Shown: in pieces, positions 1-10,280 of the stretch
Position numbering within the stretch: position 1 is the first letter of the stretch
Layout: the number at the start of each line of letters is the position of its first letter
Virus record (IMG/VR): IMGVR_UViG_2645728048_000009
From: a virus
Lineage: Duplodnaviria > Heunggongvirae > Uroviricota > Caudoviricetes
Reading direction: 5' to 3' (one strand)
Length of the DNA stretch: 10,280 nucleotides
Notes under the pieces: generated by a model
The model's database searches: none
What the model saw: the letters and a program-made list of their open reading frames with translations, nothing else
Told to the model about the DNA's origin: nothing
Translations under genes and position numbers: made by a program

Positions 1-582
1 AACTACCTGGATGATGAAGACGCGGACTGGAGCGCGACCGGGCAGGGACAGAAATCTGCAGGTGATACCAGTTTTACACTGGCCTGGAAACCGGGAGAAG
101 AAGGTCAGAAAGGGCTTATAGGCTGGTTTGAAAGCGGGGATGTGCGGGCCTATAAAATCCGTTTTCCGAATGGCACGGTGGATGTGTTTCGTGGCTGGAT
201 CAGCAGTATCGGTAAGGCAGTGACGGCGAAAGAAGTGATCACCCGAACAGTGAAAGTGACCAACGTGGGCAAACCTTCCGTGGCGGAAGAACGCAGCGAA
301 ATTACGCCGGCCACTGCAATTAAGGTGACACCGACATCCGGTACCGTGGAAAAAGGAAAAACAACCACCCTGACTGTTTCTTTTGAGCCGGAAAGTGCAA
401 CCGACAAGACGTTCAGAGCGGTTTCCGCCGATCCGTCGAAAGCCACCATTAGTGTGAAAGATATGACAATTACGGTAAACGGCGTGGCGACAGGTAAGGT
501 GCAGATCCCTGTGGTGAGCGGAAATGGTCAGTTCGCCGCAGTGGCTGAAGTCACCGTTACTGAAGCGGGCGCTGCAGGGTAA
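1..582 (+). CDS. V: Major tail tube protein V, C-terminal part (5' end lies upstream of the window); includes a C-terminal Ig-like (Big_2-type) domain
   Basis: Frame 1 is open from base 1 to TAA at 580-582, so the track ORF 142..582 is only the part after an internal Met. Position immediately upstream of G with a GGAGG-ATG start for G 14 nt downstream. The Thr/Val/Ser-rich beta-strand-like C-terminus (approx. 300-570) is typical of the Ig-like decoration domain of lambda gpV. Assignment by synteny and recall of lambda. Confidence 0.8.
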
Positions 583-595
583 ACGGAGGTAATAC

Positions 596-1027
596 ATGTT
601 TCTGAAAACAGAACAATTTGAATATAACGGTGTGTCCGTCACGCTTTCCGAGCTGTCTGCGCTGCAGCGTATTGAGCATCTTGCCCTCCTGAAACGGCGT
701 GCAGAACAGGCAGAATCCAGCGGCAACCTGCAGGTAAGCGTGGAAGATCTCGTCAGAACCGGCGCGTTTCTGGTGGCGATGTCCCTGTGGCATAACCATC
801 CGCAGAAAACGGCATCACCGTCAATGAATGAGGCTGTGATGCAGATCGAACAGGAGGTGCTCACCACCTGGCCTGCGGATGCCATTGCCCGGGCGGAAGA
901 TGTGGTGTTGCGTCTGTCCGGGATGAGCGGGGCTGTTCATGCGGATACTGACAGCACCGAAGTGGCGAAAAATAACGCACTGACTGATGATGATTTTTCT
1001 GCGGGAAAGTCTTCGACGGCGAGCTGA
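596..1027 (+). CDS. G: Tail assembly chaperone G
   Basis: ATG at 596 preceded by GGAGG (585-589); 143 codons ending TGA 1025-1027; lies between V and the tape measure gene; contains the G GGA AAG slippery heptamer near its 3' end. Confidence 0.9.
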   Translation: MFLKTEQFEYNGVSVTLSELSALQRIEHLALLKRRAEQAESSGNLQVSVEDLVRTGAFLVAMSLWHNHPQKTASPSMNEAVMQIEQEVLTTWPADAIARAEDVVLRLSGMSGAVHADTDSTEVAKNNALTDDDFSAGKSSTAS

Positions 1028-1467
1028 ATTTTGCCCTCAGACTGGCGCGTGAGATGGGGAGGCCTGACTGGCGCGCCATGCTTGCCGGGATGACATCCAC
1101 CGAATATGCCGACTGGCGACATTTTTACCGTACGCATTATTTTCACGATACCCAACTGGATATGCATTTTTCCGGGCTGACGTACGCCGTACTCAGCCTG
1201 TTTTTTTGCGATCCGGATATGCATCCCTCTGATTTCAGTCTGCTTGCCCCCCGGCGTGAGGAAGCGCAGACGGAGATGCCGGATGAGGAAAAAATGCTGA
1301 TGCAGAAAGCGGCAGGACTTGCCGGAGGCGTACGGTTTGGTGGGGACGGAGGGCGTGAGATTTTATCGTCTGCGGATGTGGCGGATGTCAGCGAGGATGA
1401 TGTCGCATTAATGATGGCTTCAGCGGGGATTCCGGGAGGTGTGAGATATGTCCCAGCCGGTTGGTGA
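596..1467 (+). CDS. T: Tail assembly chaperone G-T fusion made by -1 programmed ribosomal frameshift at 1003-1009 (T frame read from 1009 to TGA 1465-1467)
   Basis: Heptamer G GGA AAG sits in the G reading frame (codons gcG GGA AAG at 1001-1009). The -1 frame is open from there to 1467 and ends 20 nt inside the start of H. This is the conserved G/G-T arrangement upstream of tape measure genes. The track ORF 1054..1467 is the T frame, which has no plausible independent start. Confidence 0.8.
1003..1009 (+). other. -1 programmed ribosomal frameshift slippery site (G GGA AAG)
   Basis: Exact X XXY YYZ heptamer in the correct phase of G, 6 codons before the G stop, with the -1 frame open downstream; same heptamer as the lambda G-T frameshift site. 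Confidence 0.8.
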
Positions 1468-4009
1468 TCTTGTTATTGACCTGAGTCTGGATGCGGTCCG
1501 TTTCGATGAGCAGATGAGCCGGGTAAGGCGTCATTTTTCCGGACTGGAGACTGACGCCAGAAAAACCGCCGGTGTCGTTGAGCAGAACCTGAGTCGTCAG
1601 GCGCTGGCTGCACAAAAAGCCGGGATTTCCGTCGGGCAGTATAAAGCGGCCATGCGAACCCTGCCCGCACAGTTTACGGATATCGCCACGCAGCTTGCCG
1701 GTGGTCAGAATCCCTGGCTGATCCTGCTGCAACAGGGCGGTCAGGTGAAGGACTCCTTCGGCGGGATGATCCCCATGTTCAGGGGACTTGCCGGTGCGAT
1801 CACCCTGCCGATGGTGGGGGCCACCTCGCTGGCGGTGGCGACCGGTGCGCTGGCGTATGCCTGGTATCAGGGCAACTCAACCCTGTCCGATTTCAACAAA
1901 ACGCTGGTCCTTTCCGGCAATCAGGCGGGACTGACGGCAGATCGTATTCTGGCCCTGTCCAGAGCCGGGCAGGCGGCAGGGCTGACGTTTAACCAGACCA
2001 GCGAGTCACTGACGGCGCTGGTGAATGCCGGTGTGCGTGGTGGTGAGCAGTTTGAGGCGATCAGCCAGAGTGTGGCGCGTTTCTCCTCTGCATCCGGCGT
2101 GGAGGTGGACAAGGTCGCTGAAGCCTTCGGGAAGCTGACCACAGACCCGACGTCGGGACTGACAGCGATGGCACGTCAGTTCCATAACGTGACGGCGGAG
2201 CAGATTGCGTATGTTGCTCAGTTGCAGCGTTCCGGAGATGAAGCCGGGGCATTGCAGGCGGCGAACGAGGCCGCAACGAAAGGGTTTGATGACCAGACCC
2301 GCCGCCTGAAAGAGAACATGGGCACGCTGGAAACCTGGGCAGACAGGACAGCACGGGCATTCAAATCCATGTGGGATGCGGTGCTGGATATTGGTCGTCC
2401 TGATACCGCGCAGGAGATGCTGATTAAGGCAGAGGCCGCGTTTAAGAAAGCGGACGATATCTGGAATCTGCGCAAGGATGATTATTTTGTTAACGATGAA
2501 GCGCGGGCGCGTTACTGGGATGATCGTGAAAAGGCCCGTCTTGCGCTTGAAGCCGCCCGAAAGAAGGCTGAGCAGCAGAGTCAACAGGACAAAAATGCGC
2601 AGCAGCAGAGCGATACCGAAGCGTCACGGCTGAAATATACCGAAGAGGCGCAGAAGGCTTACGAACGCCTGCAGACGCCGCTGGAGAAATATACCGCCCG
2701 TCAGGAAGAACTGAATAAGGCACTGAAAGACGGGAAAATCCTGCAGGCAGATTACAACACGCTGATGGCGGCGGCGAAAAAGGATTATGAAGCGACGCTG
2801 AAAAAGCCGAAACAGTCCGGCGTGAAGGTGTCTGCGGGCGATCGTCAGGAAGACAGTGCTCATGCTGCCCTGCTGACGCTTCAGGCAGAACTCCGGACGC
2901 TGGAGAAGCATGCCGGAGCAAATGAGAAAATCAGCCAGCAGCGCCGGGATTTGTGGAAGGCGGAGAGTCAGTTCGCGGTACTGGAGGAGGCGGCGCAACG
3001 TCGCCAGCTGTCTGCACAGGAGAAATCCCTGCTGGCGCATAAAGATGAGACGCTGGAGTACAAACGCCAGCTGGCTGCACTTGGCGACAAGGTTACGTAT
3101 CAGGAGCGCCTGAACGCGCTGGCGCAGCAGGCGGATAAATTCGCACAGCAGCAACGGGCAAAACGGGCCGCCATTGATGCGAAAAGCCGGGGGCTGACTG
3201 ACCGGCAGGCAGAACGGGAAGCCACGGAACAGCGCCTGAAGGAACAGTATGGCGATAATCCGCTGGCGCTGAATAACGTCATGTCAGAGCAGAAAAAGAC
3301 CTGGGCGGCTGAAGACCAGCTTCGCGGGAGCTGGATGGCAGGCCTGAAGTCCGGCTGGAGTGAGTGGGAAGAGAGCGCCACGGACAGTATGTCGCAGGTA
3401 AAAAGTGCAGCCACGCAGACCTTTGATGGTATTGCACAGAATATGGCGGCGATGCTGACCGGCAGTGAGCAGAACTGGCGCAGCTTCACCCGTTCCGTGC
3501 TGTCCATGATGACAGAAATTCTGCTTAAGCAGGCAATGGTGGGGATTGTCGGGAGTATCGGCAGCGCCATTGGCGGGGCTGTTGGTGGCGGCGCATCCGC
3601 GTCAGGCGGTACAGCCATTCAGGCAGCTGCGGCGAAATTCCATTTTGCGACCGGGGGATTTACGGGAACCGGCGGCAAATATGAGCCAGCGGGGATTGTT
3701 CACCGTGGTGAGTTTGTCTTCACGAAGGAGGCAACCAGCCGGATTGGCGTGGGGAATCTTTACCGGCTGATGCGCGGCTATGCCACCGGCGGTTATGTCG
3801 GTACACCGGGCAGCATGGCAGACAGCCGGTCGCAGGCGTCCGGGACGTTTGAGCAGAATAACCATGTGGTGATTAACAACGACGGCACGAACGGGCAGAT
3901 TGGACCACAGGCGCTGAAGGCGGTGTATGACATGGCCCGCAAGGGTGCCCGTGATGAAATTCAGACACAGATGCGTGATGGTGGCCTGTTCTCCGGAGGT
4001 GGACGATGA
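1448..4009 (+). CDS. H: Tail tape measure protein H
   Basis: 853-aa ORF; ATG 1448 preceded by GGAGG (1435-1439). Long central A/Q/E/K/R-rich predicted coiled-coil region, a Gly-rich hydrophobic segment near the C-terminus (approx. 3530-3680), position directly after G-T. Length equals lambda gpH as I recall it. Confidence 0.95.
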   Translation: MSQPVGDLVIDLSLDAVRFDEQMSRVRRHFSGLETDARKTAGVVEQNLSRQALAAQKAGISVGQYKAAMRTLPAQFTDIATQLAGGQNPWLILLQQGGQVKDSFGGMIPMFRGLAGAITLPMVGATSLAVATGALAYAWYQGNSTLSDFNKTLVLSGNQAGLTADRILALSRAGQAAGLTFNQTSESLTALVNAGVRGGEQFEAISQSVARFSSASGVEVDKVAEAFGKLTTDPTSGLTAMARQFHNVTAEQIAYVAQLQRSGDEAGALQAANEAATKGFDDQTRRLKENMGTLETWADRTARAFKSMWDAVLDIGRPDTAQEMLIKAEAAFKKADDIWNLRKDDYFVNDEARARYWDDREKARLALEAARKKAEQQSQQDKNAQQQSDTEASRLKYTEEAQKAYERLQTPLEKYTARQEELNKALKDGKILQADYNTLMAAAKKDYEATLKKPKQSGVKVSAGDRQEDSAHAALLTLQAELRTLEKHAGANEKISQQRRDLWKAESQFAVLEEAAQRRQLSAQEKSLLAHKDETLEYKRQLAALGDKVTYQERLNALAQQADKFAQQQRAKRAAIDAKSRGLTDRQAEREATEQRLKEQYGDNPLALNNVMSEQKKTWAAEDQLRGSWMAGLKSGWSEWEESATDSMSQVKSAATQTFDGIAQNMAAMLTGSEQNWRSFTRSVLSMMTEILLKQAMVGIVGSIGSAIGGAVGGGASASGGTAIQAAAAKFHFATGGFTGTGGKYEPAGIVHRGEFVFTKEATSRIGVGNLYRLMRGYATGGYVGTPGSMADSRSQASGTFEQNNHVVINNDGTNGQIGPQALKAVYDMARKGARDEIQTQMRDGGLFSGGGR

Positions 4010-4335
4010 AAACCTTCCGCTGGAAAGTGAAACCCGGGATGGATGTGACATCGGCTCCTTCCGTCAGGGAGGTGCGCTTTGGTGATGGCTATTCCCAGCG
4101 TGCGCCTGCCGGGCTGAACGCTGACCTGAAAACGTACAGCGTGACGCTGTCTGTCTCCCGTGAGGAGGCCACGGCGCTGGAGTCGTTTCTGGCTGAGCAC
4201 GGGGGCTGGAAGGCCTTTCTGTGGACGCCGCCTTATGGTTACAGGCAGATAAAGGTGACCTGCGCAAAATGGTCGTCGCAGGTCAGTATGCTGCGTGTTG
4301 AGTTCAGCGCAGAGTTTAAACAGGTGGTGAACTGA
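4006..4335 (+). CDS. M: Tail tip assembly protein M
   Basis: 109-aa ORF; ATG overlaps the H stop (ATGA at 4006-4009); GGAGG at 3995-3999; synteny H-M-L. Confidence 0.9.
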   Translation: MKTFRWKVKPGMDVTSAPSVREVRFGDGYSQRAPAGLNADLKTYSVTLSVSREEATALESFLAEHGGWKAFLWTPPYGYRQIKVTCAKWSSQVSMLRVEFSAEFKQVVN

Positions 4336-5033
4336 TGCAGGATATCCGGCAGGAAACACTGAATGAATGCACCCGTGCGGAGCAGTCGGCCAGCGTGGTG
4401 CTCTGGGAAATCGACCTGACAGAGGTCGGTGGAGAACGTTATTTTTTCTGTAATGAGCAGAACGAAAAAGGTGAGCCGGTCACCTGGCAGGGGCGACAGT
4501 ATCAGCCGTATCCCATTCAGGGGAGCGGTTTTGAACTGAATGGCAAAGGCACCAGTACGCGCCCCACGCTGACGGTTTCTAACCTGTACGGTATGGTCAC
4601 CGGGATGGCGGAAGATATGCAGAGTCTGGTCGGCGGAACGGTGGTCCGGCGTAAGGTTTACGCCCGTTTTCTGGATGCGGTGAACTTCGTCAACGGAAAC
4701 AGTTACGCCGATCCGGAGCAGGAGGTGATCAGCCGCTGGCGCATCGAGCAGTGCAGCGAACTGAGCGCGGTGAGTGCCTCCTTTGTACTGTCCACGCCGA
4801 CGGAAACGGATGGCGCTGTTTTTCCGGGACGTATCATGCTGGCCAACACCTGCACCTGGACCTATCGCGGTGACGAGTGCGGTTATAACGGTCCGGCTGT
4901 CGCGGATGAATATGACCAGCCGACGTCCGATATCACGAAGGATAAATGCAGCAAATGCCTGAGCGGCTGTAAGTTCCGCAATAACGTCGGCAACTTTGGC
5001 GGCTTCCTTTCCATTAACAAACTTTCGCAGTAA
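4335..5033 (+). CDS. L: Tail tip protein L (C-terminal Cys cluster, probable Fe-S binding)
   Basis: 232-aa ORF; start overlaps the M stop (TGATG at 4333-4337); cysteine cluster CTWTYRGDECGYNG...CSKCLSGC encoded at about 4850-4970; synteny. Confidence 0.9.
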   Translation: MQDIRQETLNECTRAEQSASVVLWEIDLTEVGGERYFFCNEQNEKGEPVTWQGRQYQPYPIQGSGFELNGKGTSTRPTLTVSNLYGMVTGMAEDMQSLVGGTVVRRKVYARFLDAVNFVNGNSYADPEQEVISRWRIEQCSELSAVSASFVLSTPTETDGAVFPGRIMLANTCTWTYRGDECGYNGPAVADEYDQPTSDITKDKCSKCLSGCKFRNNVGNFGGFLSINKLSQ

Positions 5034-5037
5034 TCCC

Positions 5038-5781
5038 ATGACAGAGACAGAATCAGCGATTCTGGCGCACGCCCGGCGATGTGCGCCAGCGGAGTCGTGC
5101 GGCTTCGTGGTGAGAACGCCGGAGGGGGAAAGATATTTTCCCTGCGTGAATATCTCCGGTGAGCCGGAGGAGTATTTCCGGATGTCGCCGGAGGACTGGC
5201 TGCAGGCAGAAATGCAGGGTGAGATTGTGGCGCTGGTCCACAGCCACCCCGGTGGTCTGCCCTGGCTGAGTGAGGCTGACCGGCGGCTGCAGGTGCAGAG
5301 TGATTTGCCGTGGTGGCTGGTCTGCCGGGGGGCGATTCATAAATTCCGCTGTGTGCCGCATCTCACCGGGCGGCGCTTTGAGCACGGGGTGACGGACTGT
5401 TACACGCTGTTCCGGGACGCTTACCATCTGGCGGGGATTGAGATGCCGGATTTTCATCGTGAGGATGACTGGTGGCGTCACGGTCAGAATCTCTATCTGG
5501 ATAATCTGGAGGCAACGGGGCTGTATCAGGTGCCGTTGTCAGCGGCGCAGCCGGGCGATGTGCTGCTGTGCTGTTTTGGTTCATCGGTGCCGAATCATGC
5601 CGCCATTTACTGTGGCGACGGCGAGCTGCTGCACCATATTCCTGAACAACTGAGTAAACGAGAGAGGTACACCGACAAATGGCAGCGACGCACACACTCC
5701 CTCTGGCGTCACCGGGCATGGCACGCATCTGCCTTTACGGGGATTTACAACGATTTGGCCGCCGCATCGACCTTCGTGTGA
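5038..5781 (+). CDS. K: Tail tip assembly protein K with MPN/JAMM-like and NlpC/P60-like domains; longest ORF shown, alternative in-frame start at 5182 (199 aa)
   Basis: ATG 5038 lies 4 nt after the L stop with no Shine-Dalgarno. In-frame ATG 5182 is preceded by GGAGG (5166-5170). JAMM-type motif H-S-H-x7-S-x2-D encoded near 5239-5280. NlpC/P60-like Cys (TDCY, about 5398) and His (VPNHAAIY, about 5595). Stop TGA 5779-5781, overlapping I by 103 nt in another frame. The track's 4996 start is upstream of the L stop and is rejected. Confidence 0.8.
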   Translation: MTETESAILAHARRCAPAESCGFVVRTPEGERYFPCVNISGEPEEYFRMSPEDWLQAEMQGEIVALVHSHPGGLPWLSEADRRLQVQSDLPWWLVCRGAIHKFRCVPHLTGRRFEHGVTDCYTLFRDAYHLAGIEMPDFHREDDWWRHGQNLYLDNLEATGLYQVPLSAAQPGDVLLCCFGSSVPNHAAIYCGDGELLHHIPEQLSKRERYTDKWQRRTHSLWRHRAWHASAFTGIYNDLAAASTFV

Positions 5782-6350
5782 AAACGGGGGCTGAAGCCAT
5801 CCGCGCACTGGCCACACAGCTCCCGGCGTTTCGTCAGAAACTGAGCGACGGCTGGTATCAGGTACGGATTGCCGGGCGGGACGTCAGCACGTCCGGGTTA
5901 ACGGCGCAGTTACATGAGACTCTGCCTGATGGCGCTGTGATTCATATTGTTCCCAGAGTCGCCGGGGCCAAGTCAGGTGGCGTATTCCAGATTGTCCTGG
6001 GAGCAGCCGCCATTGCCGGATCATTCTTTACTGCCGGAGCCACCCTTGCAGCGTGGGGGGCAGCCATTGGGGCCGGTGGTATGACCGGCATCCTGTTTTC
6101 TCTCGGTGCCAGTATGGTGCTCGGTGGTGTGGCCCAGATGCTGGCACCGAAAGCCAGAACTCCCCGTACACAGACAACGGATAACGGCAAACAAAACACC
6201 TATTTCTCCTCACTGGATAACATGGTTGCCCAAGGCAATGTTCTGCCCGTTCTGTACGGTGAAATGCGCGTGGGATCACGTGTGGTTTCTCAGGAGATCA
6301 GCACGGCAGACGAAGGGGACGGTGGTCAGGTTGTGGTGATTGGTCGCTGA
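5679..6350 (+). CDS. I: Tail tip assembly protein I (N-terminal ubiquitin-like region ending in Gly-Gly, then a hydrophobic Gly/Ala-rich C-terminal half)
   Basis: 223-aa ORF; ATG 5679 with GAGAGG upstream (5662-5667); Gly-Gly at codons 100-101 (5976-5981) followed by a hydrophobic A/G/L-rich stretch; synteny K-I-J. Confidence 0.9.
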   Translation: MAATHTLPLASPGMARICLYGDLQRFGRRIDLRVKTGAEAIRALATQLPAFRQKLSDGWYQVRIAGRDVSTSGLTAQLHETLPDGAVIHIVPRVAGAKSGGVFQIVLGAAAIAGSFFTAGATLAAWGAAIGAGGMTGILFSLGASMVLGGVAQMLAPKARTPRTQTTDNGKQNTYFSSLDNMVAQGNVLPVLYGEMRVGSRVVSQEISTADEGDGGQVVVIGR

Positions 6351-6368
6351 TGCAAAATGTTTTATGTG

Positions 6369-6388
6369 AAACCGCCTGCGGGCGGTTT
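6369..6388 (+). other. Stem-loop in the I-J intergenic spacer (8-bp stem AAACCGCC/GGCGGTTT, loop TGCG)
   Basis: Perfect inverted repeat read directly from the sequence, followed by a T-rich stretch (TTTTGTCATTT). Function unknown: possibly an RNA-stabilising or attenuating hairpin between I and J. Confidence 0.35.
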
Positions 6389-6410
6389 TGTCATTTATGG
6401 AGCGTGAGGA

Positions 6411-9400
6411 ATGGGTAAAGGAAGCAGTAAGGGGCATACCCCGCGCGAAGCGAAGGACAACCTGAAGTCCACGCAGTTGCTGAGTGTGATCGATGCCATC
6501 AGCGAAGGGCCGGTTGAAGGTCCGGTAGATGGATTAAAAAGCGTGCTGCTGAACAGTACGCCGGTGCTGGACAGTGAGGGGAATACCAACATCTCCGGCG
6601 TCACGGTGGTGTTCCGGGCAGGTGAGCAGGAGCAGACACCGCCGGAGGGATTTGAATCCTCCGGCTCCGAGACGGTGCTGGGTACGGAAGTGAAATATGA
6701 CACGCCGATCACCCGCACCATCACGTCGGCAAACATCGACCGACTGCGCCTGACCTTCGGCGTGCAGGCACTGGTGGAAACCACCTCAAAGGGGGACAGG
6801 AATCCATCGGAAGTCCGCCTGCTGGTTCAGATACAACGTAACGGTGGCTGGGTGACGGAAAAAGACATCACCATTAAGGGCAAAACCACTTCACAGTATC
6901 TGGCCTCGGTGGTGGTGGATAACCTGCCGCCGCGCCCGTTCAATATCCGGATGCGCAGGATGACGCCGGACAGCACCACAGACCAGCTGCAGAACAAAAC
7001 GCTCTGGTCGTCATACACCGAAATCATCGATGTGAAACAGGGCTACCCGAACACGGCACTGGTCGGCGTGCAGGTGGACTCGGAGCAGTTCGGCAGCCAG
7101 CAGGTGAGCCGTAATTATCATCTTCGCGGGCGCATTCTGCAGGTGCCGTCGAACTATAACCCGCAGACGCGGCAATACAGCGGTATCTGGGACGGAACGT
7201 TAAAACCGGCATACAGCAACAACACGGCCTGGTGTCTGTGGGATATGCTGACCCACCCGCGCTACGGCATGGGGAAACGTCTTGGTGCGGCGGATGTGGA
7301 TAAATGGGCGCTGTATGTCATCGGCCAGTACTGCGACCAGTCGGTGCCGGACGGCTTTGGCGGCACGGAGCCGCGCATTACCTGTAATGCGTACCTGACC
7401 ACACAGCGCAAGGCGTGGGATGTGCTCAGTGATTTCTGCTCGGCGATGCGCTGTATGCCGGTATGGAACGGGCAGACGCTGACGTTCGTGCAGGACCGAC
7501 CATCAGATAAGGTGTGGACCTATAACCGCAGTAATGTGGTGATGCCGGATGATGGTGCGCCGTTCCGCTACAGCTTCAGCGCCCTGAAGGACCGCCATAA
7601 TGCCGTTGAGGTGAACTGGATTGACCCGAATAACGGCTGGGAGACGGCGACAGAGCTTGTTGAAGATACGCAGGCCATTGCCCGTTACGGTCGTAATGTC
7701 ACGAAGATGGATGCCTTTGGTTGTACCAGCCGGGGGCAGGCACACCGAGCCGGGCTGTGGCTGATTAAAACGGAACTGCTGGAAACGCAGACCGTGGATT
7801 TCAGCGTGGGCGCAGAAGGGCTTCGCCATGTGCCGGGCGATGTCATTGAAATCTGTGATGATGACTATGCCGGTATCAGCACCGGCGGGCGCGTGCTGGC
7901 GGTAAACAGCCAGACCCGGACGCTGACGCTCGACCGTGAAATCACGCTGCCATCCTCCGGCACCACGCTGATAAGCCTGGTTGACGGGAAGGGTAATCCG
8001 GTCAGCGTGGAGGTCCAGTCCGTCACCGACGGCGTGAAGGTGAAAGTGAGCCGTGTTCCTGACGGCGTTGCTGAATACAGCGTGTGGGGGCTGAAGTTGC
8101 CGACGTTGCGCCAGCGCCTGTTCCGCTGCGTGAGTATCCGTGAGAACGACGACGGCACGTATGCCATCACCGCCGTGCAGCATGTACCCGAAAAAGAAGC
8201 CATCGTGGATAACGGGGCGCACTTTGACGGCGACCAGAGCGGCACGGTGAATGGTGTCACGCCGCCAGCGGTGCAGCACCTGACTGCCGAAGTCACCGCA
8301 GACAGCGGGGAATATCAGGTGCTGGCGCGCTGGGACACGCCGAAGGTGGTGAAGGGCGTGAGCTTTATGCTTCGCCTGACCGTGGCAGCGGATGACGGCA
8401 GTGAGCGGCTGGTCAGCACGGCCCGGACGACGGAAACCACATACCGCTTCACGCAACTGGCGCCGGGGAACTACAGGCTGACAGTCCGGGCGGTAAATGC
8501 GTGGGGGCAGCAGGGCGATCCGGCGTCGGTATCGTTCCGGATTGCCGCACCGGCAGCACCGTCGCGGATTGAGCTGACACCGGGCTATTTTCAGATAACA
8601 GCGGTCCCGCGTCTTGCGGTGTATGACCCGACGGTACAGTTTGAGTTCTGGTTTTCGGAAACGCGGATTACCGATATCAGGCAGGTTGAAACCACAGCCC
8701 GCTACCTTGGCACGGGGCTGTACTGGATAGCCGCCAGTATCAATATCAAACCGGGCCATGATTATTACTTTTATATCCGCAGTGTGAACACCGTTGGCAA
8801 ATCGGCATTTGTGGAGGCTGTTGGCCAGCCGAGTGATGATGCATCCGGCTATCTGGATTTTTTCAAAGGAGAGATAGGGAAAACCCATCTGGCTCAGGAG
8901 TTGTGGACTCAGATTGATAACGGTCAGCTTGCGCCTGACCTGGCGGAAATCAGAACGTCCATCACGGATGTCAGTAATGAAATCACGCAGACCGTCAATA
9001 AGAAACTGGAAGACCAGAGTGCAGCGATCCAGCAGATACAGAAGGTTCAGGTTGATACAAATAATAATCTGAACAGCATGTGGGCTGTGAAGCTGCAACA
9101 GATGAAGGACGGACGCCTTTATATTGCGGGTATCGGTGCCGGTATTGAGAATACGCCAGCAGGAATGCAGAGTCAGGTGCTGCTGGCGGCAGACAGGATT
9201 GCGATGATTAATCCTGCGAATGGCAACACAAAGCCGATGTTTGTTGGTCAGGGCGATCAGATATTCATGAATGAAGTGTTCCTGAAATATCTGACGGCTC
9301 CCACCATTACCAGTGGCGGCAATCCTCCGGCATTTTCCCTGACATCAGACGGAAAGCTGACCGCTAAAAATGCGGATATCAGTGGCAGTGTGAATGCGAA

Positions 9401-9890
9401 CTCCGGGACGCTCAACAACGTCACGATTAACGAGAACTGTCGGGTTCTGGGAAAACTGTCCGCGAACCAGATTGAAGGCGATCTCGTTAAAACAGTGGGC
9501 AAAGCTTTCCCCCGGGACTCCCGTGCACCGGAACGGTGGCCATCAGGGACCATTACCGTCAGGGTTTATGACGATCAGCCGTTTGACCGGCAGATTGTTA
9601 TTCCGGCGGTGGCATTCAGCGGCGCTAAACATGAGAGAGAGCATACTGATATTTACTCCTCATGCCGTCTGATAGTGCGGAAAAACGGTGCTGAAATTTA
9701 TAACCGTACCGCGCTGGATAATACGCTGATTTACAGTGGCGTTATTGATATGCCTGCCGGTCACGGTCACATGACGCTGGAGTTTTCGGTGTCAGCATGG
9801 CTGGTGAATAACTGGTATCCCACAGCAAGTATCAGCGATTTGCTGGTTGTGGTGATGAAGAAAGCCACCGCAGGCATCAGTATCAGCTGA
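6411..9890 (+). CDS. J: Central tail fibre / host-specificity protein J (tail tip; FN3-like repeats; divergent C-terminal receptor-binding region)
   Basis: 1159-aa ORF; ATG 6411 preceded by GAGGA (6405-6409). FN3-like segment encoded around 8250-8560. The N-terminal approx. 800 aa match my recollection of lambda J closely, whereas the last approx. 340 aa (from about 8870) diverge and the DNA there has visibly lower GC. Confidence 0.95.
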
Positions 9891-9908
9891 ATTTTATAAC
9901 CCATATAC

Positions 9909-9933
9909 GGGCGCCAGAAATGGCGCCTTTTTT
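9909..9933 (+). terminator. Rho-independent terminator after J
   Basis: GC stem GGCGCC (9910-9915), loop AGAAAT, GGCGCC (9922-9927), followed immediately by TTTTTT (9928-9933); located 20 nt after the J stop. Confidence 0.8.
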
Positions 9934-9957
9934 ATTGCAGAAAAGCGAGAGGTAATT

Positions 9958-10280
9958 ATGCGTAAATTATGTGCTGTTATTCTGTCCGCAGTAGTCTGGC
10001 TGGTTGCCGCTGGTACGCCAGCGAGCGCAGCAGAGCATCAGTCCACACTAAGCGCCGGGTATCTTCAGACCCATACTGATATGCCAGGCAGCGATGACCT
10101 GAAGGGCATTAACGTGAAATACCGTTATGAATTTACGGACACGCTGGGGCTGGTGACGTCATTCAGCTATGCAGGAGACAGGAATCGCCAGCTTACCCGT
10201 TACAGCGATACCCGCTGGCATGAAGATTCCGTGCGTAACCGCTGGTTCAGCGTGATGGCGGGGCCGTCTGTACGCGTGAA
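9958..10280 (+). CDS. lom: Lom / Ail-family outer membrane protein, 5' part (continues past the window end)
   Basis: ATG 9958 preceded by GAGAGG (9945-9950). Open frame to the window edge (107 codons, no stop), which is why it is absent from the ORF track. N-terminal signal-peptide-like sequence [24 protein letters not shown] followed by beta-barrel-like alternating motifs ([23 protein letters not shown]) that match my recollection of lambda Lom. Position downstream of J as in lambda. Confidence 0.85.

Follow-up and report, generated by a model that had tools for sequence, protein, structure and literature searches.

The stretch of DNA analyzed here, called the window throughout, was identified by an exact match of its J protein as the entire 10,280 bp contig JHSN01000103.1 of assembly GCA_001265995.1, and its open reading frames form a lambdoid tail module that encodes the chaperones G and T, the tape measure protein H, and the M, L, K, I and J proteins. 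The G-like chaperone gene (596–1027) has, close to its end, a λ-type slippery heptamer, GGGAAAG, at 1003–1009, and the T frame, which is −1 relative to G, runs without a stop from 994 to 1467; the window seems to have kept the programmed G/GT frameshift. The K-like gene (JAB/NlpC-P60, 4996–5781) starts at a TTG at 4996 in our list of open reading frames (261 aa) and at 5038 in the database record (247 aa), and this start-codon ambiguity is trivial.

The last complete gene of the module is J, the tail tip or host-specificity gene (6411–9890, plus strand, 1159 aa). Its open reading frame contains all of the gpJ Pfam domains (FNIII-A_GpJ, Phage-tail_3, Ig_J, Ig_J_second, Phage_Tail_Tip and Ig_GpJ_C), and its product matches the λ gpJ structure 8iyk in the PDB with an E-value of 0. 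Directly downstream on the same strand lies the 5′ part of a lom gene (9958–10280), separated from J by a spacer of 67 nt (9891–9957, plus strand, GC 0.403). A Shine-Dalgarno sequence, GAGAGGT, can be read directly at 9947–9953 (plus strand), with 4 nt between it and the ATG at 9958, and it is kept across the aligned lom-containing loci including λ, with the single exception of Stx2_95, which has AAGAGGT. The lom frame stays open for 107 codons plus 2 nt, up to the point where the contig stops, and it is the only frame on either strand that remains open throughout this region. Its product matches the Pfam family Ail_Lom (PF06316) with an E-value of 1.4e-64 and a score of 218 bits, where the cut-off is 23, covering positions 1–107 of the 199-position profile, and what is visible corresponds to about strands 1–4 of the barrel.

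The N-terminus of the protein has the makings of a Sec signal peptide. A basic MRK is followed by a 16-residue hydrophobic core (mean Kyte-Doolittle hydropathy 2.5) and an A-x-A site, ASA/AE, and hydrophobicity and the −3/−1 rule predict a signal peptide of residues 1–24 (9958–10029, plus strand) with cleavage after ASA. The leader peptide also aligns with that of λ Lom, which ends in PARA/E. A lipoprotein reading based on Cys5 was rejected, as no lipobox follows the hydrophobic region. The first-pass annotation had described a gene with its own Shine-Dalgarno sequence, a signal peptide and Ail/Lom motifs, running off the end of the window after 107 codons and missed by the list of open reading frames, and all of this agrees with what we find; the gene is absent from the list because the list omits frames that run off the end. 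The 107-residue partial Ail_Lom product is in fact already on record for JHSN01000103.1.

Since the contig ends inside the gene, lom cannot be extended in its own source. A relative in E. coli O103 RM8385 differs from the window at 3 nt over 9891–10280 and at one residue of the 107 (R75K). The RM8385 protein (RefSeq WP_001228241.1) is intact at 199 aa, is named "Ail/Lom family outer membrane beta-barrel protein" by PGAP, matches the whole of Ail_Lom (profile positions 1–199 of 199, E-value 5.5e-123), and ends in GVGYKF. In RM8385 and PhiR55_1, which carry this lambdoid Lom, the hairpin (see below), the spacer and the Shine-Dalgarno sequence are identical to those of the window, as is the placement of J upstream, and there is no substantive difference between that type and the window copy apart from the cut at the contig end. 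In RM8385 lom is followed by a second terminator and then by the side tail fiber gene (stf). We are confident that the gene at the end of the window is the 5′ half of an ordinary lambdoid-prophage lom at its standard site between J and the side tail fiber gene.

Could it instead be a remnant or a pseudogene, truncated or stopped shortly past the contig end, as might happen where a prophage is decaying? The contig does stop inside lom, and of about 119 related copies that could be assessed, 7 (about 6%) have premature stops at codons 47–185. Against this, all 107 visible codons are open, and the window copy is one conservative residue and 3 nt in 390 removed from an intact 199-aa gene; moreover, in 111 of 128 related copies the gene product has exactly 199 aa. 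It is also unsurprising that the assembly broke inside lom, because E. coli genomes carry the J–lom sequence in a median of 2 and up to 14 copies. We thus regard a pseudogene as highly improbable. An intact copy would be expected to continue through a 199-codon open reading frame and a sequence CAGCCCGCCGG...GGCGGGCTTTTTT, followed by GTGGGGTGAATATG and stf.

The hairpin between J and lom

The spacer contains a hairpin with the form of an intrinsic terminator (9909–9933, plus strand), which begins 18 nt past the J stop codon. Its stem pairs 9909/9910–9916 with 9921–9927/9928 around a loop at 9917–9920 and is followed by six Ts at 9928–9933; the arms are GGGCGCCA and TGGCGCCT around a GAAA loop (9909–9928), and they form 8 pairs, six of them G-C, with a T6ATT tract directly after. 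The predicted free energy is −15.1 kcal/mol, and the fold of the spacer (70 nt) has a z-score of −2.9, with 1 of 200 shuffled sequences equally stable. On the minus strand no T-run follows the hairpin, and so it is one-directional.

A loose terminator pattern proves nothing by itself because it is as frequent in shuffled sequence (1 observed and 1.1 expected in 9300–10280; 9 observed and 8.0 expected in the whole window). The J–lom hairpin ranks first of the nine pattern sites in the window and is the sole intergenic one on the plus strand. We compared 128 related IMG/VR copies that were retrieved by their lom leader sequence, 127 of which are in register at the hairpin, and 124 of these 127 have a perfect 7-bp stem. 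The stem occurs in three compensated versions (GGCGCCA/TGGCGCC, GGCACCA/TGGTGCC and GGCGTCA/TGACGCC), which differ by double changes at two stem positions, and only two mismatched intermediates were seen among these copies. Among 21 distinct sequences pairing holds in 98% of cells and two pairs are changed on both sides, none of 500 shuffles matches the observed pairing or covariation, and slid registers all collapse. The compensatory changes indicate that selection acts on the pairing and not on the sequence.

The same hairpin is present in phage 21, where it is annotated "terminator", and λ has an unrelated hairpin with a T-run at the same site. The λ hairpin is predicted to be weaker than that of the window (−9.7 and −15.1 kcal/mol, respectively). 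A search of 9700–10280 against Rfam at E ≤ 1 returned no family. By its sequence features the hairpin is a canonical intrinsic terminator, and the earlier proposal of a strong intrinsic terminator at 9909–9933 after the J stop is borne out by the end of J at 9890, the GC-rich stem, the GAAA loop, the six Ts and the covariation.

It is conceivable, but we think quite improbable, that the hairpin is not primarily a terminator and serves instead to stabilize the 3′ end of a processed J mRNA, or that it is a recombination junction conserved by linkage. The background frequency of the loose pattern would fit such a view, as would the module boundaries, which fall exactly at the T-run of the hairpin (see below). 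Neither sits well with a structure that has all the canonical features on one strand only and 18 nt past a stop codon, with compensatory changes that show selection on pairing, or with the unrelated hairpin and T-run of λ at the same spot; a stabilizing role would in any case be compatible with termination.

The lom cassette and its empty sites

The order J–lom–stf is found in E. coli O103 RM8385, PhiR55_1, VT1-Sakai, 2G7b, Kati and λ, and 3,719 of 5,426 complete E. coli genomes have this filled arrangement when a match over at least 80% of 9700–10280 is required. An empty arrangement, in which J and the same hairpin are followed by stf without lom, is present in 1,224 of the 5,426 genomes and in 29 phage records; named examples without lom are phage 21, PhiR63_2, ev017 and 4A7. 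Matches of the whole window to phage 21 and PhiR63_2 end at 9936, just past the T-run. The visible part of the lom cassette accordingly occupies 9937–10280 (plus strand), with its left boundary placed at the end of the phage 21 homology, after TTTTTTATT, with an ambiguity of 1–3 nt.

In phage 21 the junction reads ...GGCGCCTTTTTTATT followed directly by TGTGGAGTGAATATG and stf. In the genomes with lom the left junction joins ...GGCGCCTTTTTTATT to GCAGAAAAGCGAGAGGTAATT, the ATG and lom, and the right junction joins CAGCCCGCCGGTTCAGGCGGGCTTTTTT to GTGGGGTGAATATG and stf. The cassette is therefore bounded by two terminator T-runs and is about 674 bp long, comprising a 21–24-nt leader, lom, a 3′ untranslated stretch and a second hairpin. 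In the relatives this second hairpin has the form CAGCCCGCCGG-TTCA-GGCGGGC followed by six Ts (−18.2 kcal/mol), and it lies 3′ of lom in most copies.

Phage λ has the same layout. Its Lom (NP_040601.1, 206 aa; chain C of PDB 9wso) is likewise encoded between J and stf. In order, the λ locus has a hairpin with a T-run, a leader of about 25 nt that contains GAGAGGT, then lom, a second terminator, GTGGGGTGAATATG and stf. The last 27 residues of λ Lom are identical or nearly so to those of the full-length relative of the window protein, and the 3′ flanks are nearly identical.

Two variants of the cassette were seen among the related loci. A minority of loci, P-EibA (L005, 1056–1208) and 12 IMG/VR loci, have a second type of right-hand junction, in which a longer 3′ flank, CAACAGACGCCGATTTATCTTCTG..., replaces the second hairpin, and the C-terminus of the P-EibA Lom also differs, ending in GYRF. 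One IMG/VR contig (L047, 4282–4312 and 5778–5808) carries two lom leaders on one strand, separated by about 1.5 kb; a tandem duplication of lom or an assembly artifact may explain this.

The distribution supports the view that lom is an add-on gene, carried as a discrete cassette that is present or absent in otherwise collinear lambdoid genomes. The first-pass annotation had called lom a moron and had taken the lower local GC content as consistent with such acquisition. Among known systems it resembles the morons of lambdoid phages that are exemplified by HK97 gene 15 (reviewed in PMC3594210 after Juhala 2000). With those genes lom shares the arrangement of a discrete extra gene between two late-operon genes, absent from collinear relatives such as phage 21 and the prophages above. 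In relatives that carry lom the gene also has a terminator, the second hairpin, whose place would be beyond the end of the window. It differs from them in that it has no recognizable promoter or space for one, as far as prediction goes, and in that its GC content is not distinct. The label thus holds in the sense of presence and absence and, in relatives, of the terminator, but neither composition nor a promoter of its own contributes to it.

With respect to composition, the GC content of 9891–10280 (0.523) is indeed below the mean of 0.573, and values this low occur in 11% of 390-nt windows. This dip is due to the AT-rich 67-nt spacer. The coding part of lom has a GC content of 0.551, compared with 0.571 for 1–9890, which puts it at the 28th percentile, and a third-position GC content (GC3) of 0.58, so that its composition does not look foreign, and the 3′ end of J is lower than lom. 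We therefore rejected GC content as a sign of foreign origin; the presence/absence evidence for moron status is stronger than the GC argument.

In composition, what truly stands out in the window is the 3′ end of J (9011–9890, 880 nt), with a GC content of 0.508 and a GC3 of 0.42, compared with a GC3 of 0.71 in the rest of J. This block encodes the C-terminal receptor-binding part of the protein. The final 133 residues are only 42% identical to λ J, and the C-terminal part has a better match in the PDB entry "A8 gpJ 713" (9wca) than in λ gpJ. This part has the look of a specificity module that is exchanged separately.

The gene, its position after J, the flanking terminators and its status as an add-on have long been established for λ and its relatives and are already known, and J–lom–stf is a textbook lambdoid arrangement. 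As the protein has also been named by PGAP, the identification of lom in the window has little significance beyond correct annotation.

Transcription of lom

A strict σ70 scan of 9300–10280 gave no match. The top hits of a relaxed scan, which matched at 8 of 12 positions, are unconvincing; one of them is a TATAAC −10 hexamer at 9895–9900 with a poor −35. Neither scan thus gave a credible promoter, and the first-pass annotation had likewise seen no convincing σ70 promoter between the terminator and the start codon. In λ a TATTAT can be found by eye just past the hairpin, but at that site the window type has no hexamer with an A at position 2 and a T at position 6, and so no conserved promoter can be proposed. 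Only 21–24 nt of the cassette precede the ATG, which leaves no room for a promoter of its own. A non-consensus promoter may overlap the hairpin or the 3′ end of J. The empty sites, by showing that the cassette has no room for a promoter, sharpen the old question of how lysogens transcribe lom.

Late transcription in λ is carried out by a Q-modified polymerase that starts from pR′ and ignores terminators, and for this reason J, lom and stf should be co-transcribed late. During lytic growth the Q-modified, terminator-resistant polymerase would read through both hairpins and give strong late expression of lom. In a lysogen unmodified polymerase arriving from the tail genes would be halted at the upstream hairpin, transcription of lom would be kept out of the fiber genes by the downstream one, and the two hairpins would in this way insulate the tail and fiber genes. 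Any expression from the prophage would then have to come from a weak non-consensus promoter outside the cassette (in the 3′ end of J or the hairpin region) or from leakage through the terminator.

Expression of lom in λ lysogens has been reported (PMC7067206, PMC1151598), but one microarray study did not detect it in a λ lysogen (PMC2147009). The lom gene of φ24B is expressed at similar levels in lysogens and in induced cells, uncoupled from induction (PMC3342100), and strong expression of lom late in infection is cited in PMC12366544 and PMC9836094. The gene is non-essential for plaque formation (PMC10695390). In the literature we searched we found no mapped lom transcription start in EHEC, and as no promoter was found in the window, expression of its lom type in the prophage state is an extrapolation from λ.

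The Lom protein and its possible role

The fold family can be read from the full-length relative. WP_001228241.1 matches PDB 9wso chain C (λ Lom) with an E-value of 2.4e-50, OmpX with 1.5e-19 and Ail with 3.8e-18, and in each case the whole barrel is aligned. Ail of Yersinia, OmpX of E. coli and Rck and PagC of Salmonella are eight-stranded β-barrels of the same Pfam family that are encoded on chromosomes or plasmids, and the relative aligns end to end with Ail and OmpX. It falls well short of the NCBIfam equivalog cut-offs for Rck and OmpX, however, scoring 118.7 bits against 258 (NF011777) and 105.1 bits against 176 (NF006917), respectively. The window-type Lom is a member of the Ail/Lom family but not an orthologue of Rck or OmpX. 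It further differs from Ail, OmpX, Rck and PagC in its longer loops and in being phage-borne, inside a tail operon.

Between the window type and λ Lom, identity is 46% over the full length and 36% over the half that is visible. The two differ in the predicted outer loops L1–L3, and L1 is 8 residues longer in λ; the J proteins encoded next to them are 42% identical in their receptor-binding domains. The Lom precursor would be exported by the Sec system and cleaved after Ala24, and the mature protein would insert into the outer membrane as an eight-stranded β-barrel whose long extracellular loops (L1 at about residues 38–49, L2 at about 74–94 and L3 beyond the window) would do the binding. Surface binding is the most likely role of the window-type Lom.

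The first-pass annotation had called lom a virulence-type gene implicated in adhesion. Virulence is a label of the family, and λ Lom has been reported to mediate adhesion to buccal epithelial cells (Vica Pacheco 1997, as cited in PMC3594210), but λ Lom is only 46% identical to the window type, and recent work on it points instead to a role directed at phages. Outer membrane location and an adhesion or serum-resistance phenotype are published for λ Lom only (PMC3594210, PMC1151598). When over-expressed, λ Lom blocks λvir and has no effect on T7 (PMC12366544). In addition, PDB entry 9wso holds, together with λ Lom, the maltoporin (LamB) sequence that is present in the gpJ–LamB complex 8xcj; we found no paper behind 9wso in the literature searched, and its content points to receptor binding by λ Lom. 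If 9wso is a Lom–LamB complex, the usual reading of Lom as a virulence factor changes.

These observations raise the possibility, to which we give real weight without favoring it, that Lom mainly serves the phage as a receptor mask, and lysogenic conversion or virulence less so: made in bulk late in infection, it would bind the phage's own outer-membrane receptor and so keep progeny or superinfecting kin from being lost to cells that are infected or lysing, and the virulence label would be secondary. The strong and λ-specific defense by over-expressed λ Lom, which leaves T7 unaffected (PMC12366544), is what such a mask should give, and so is the sharp late rise of Lom that is cited in PMC12366544 and PMC9836094. 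The pairing of λ Lom in 9wso with the maltoporin sequence of 8xcj, the location of lom, which lacks a promoter of its own, between J and stf, both of them receptor-binding genes, and the concentration of its sequence variation in L1 and L2, which are predicted to be outer loops, all point the same way. On the other hand, λ lysogens are not protected from λvir at natural levels of Lom (PMC12366544). Nor are variants of Lom and of the J receptor-binding domain tightly paired, as a matched mask would predict, at 98 related loci, where the J type of the window co-occurs with 10 of 13 Lom clusters, although this pairing test is weak either way because the Lom proteins compared are all closely related and it is confounded by linkage.

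A fuller scheme, which we put forward as speculation and consider rather unlikely to be right in all its parts, would join this role to the architecture of the locus. The lom cassette would be a promoterless gene with a terminator, gained and lost by exchange within the two terminator T-runs and expressed mainly late by Q-dependent read-through; loops L1–L3 would mask the outer-membrane receptor that the tail of the resident phage uses, as entry 9wso suggests, and the 199-aa type would mask a different receptor from that of λ Lom and would not act in virulence. The 199-aa type is far commoner than λ Lom in pathogenic E. coli and is commonest in EHEC prophages, whereas the receptor-binding and anti-phage activities now reported are those of λ Lom.

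Within the window type, the variation of Lom is segmental. At L001 (4259–4858) and 128 IMG/VR loci (L012–L131) it falls in the signal peptide, in L1 (about residues 36–49) and at the start of L2 (about 72–81), and each of these segments exists in two main versions that are reassorted in many combinations, while the C-terminal half is nearly invariant. This pattern suggests recombination inside lom.
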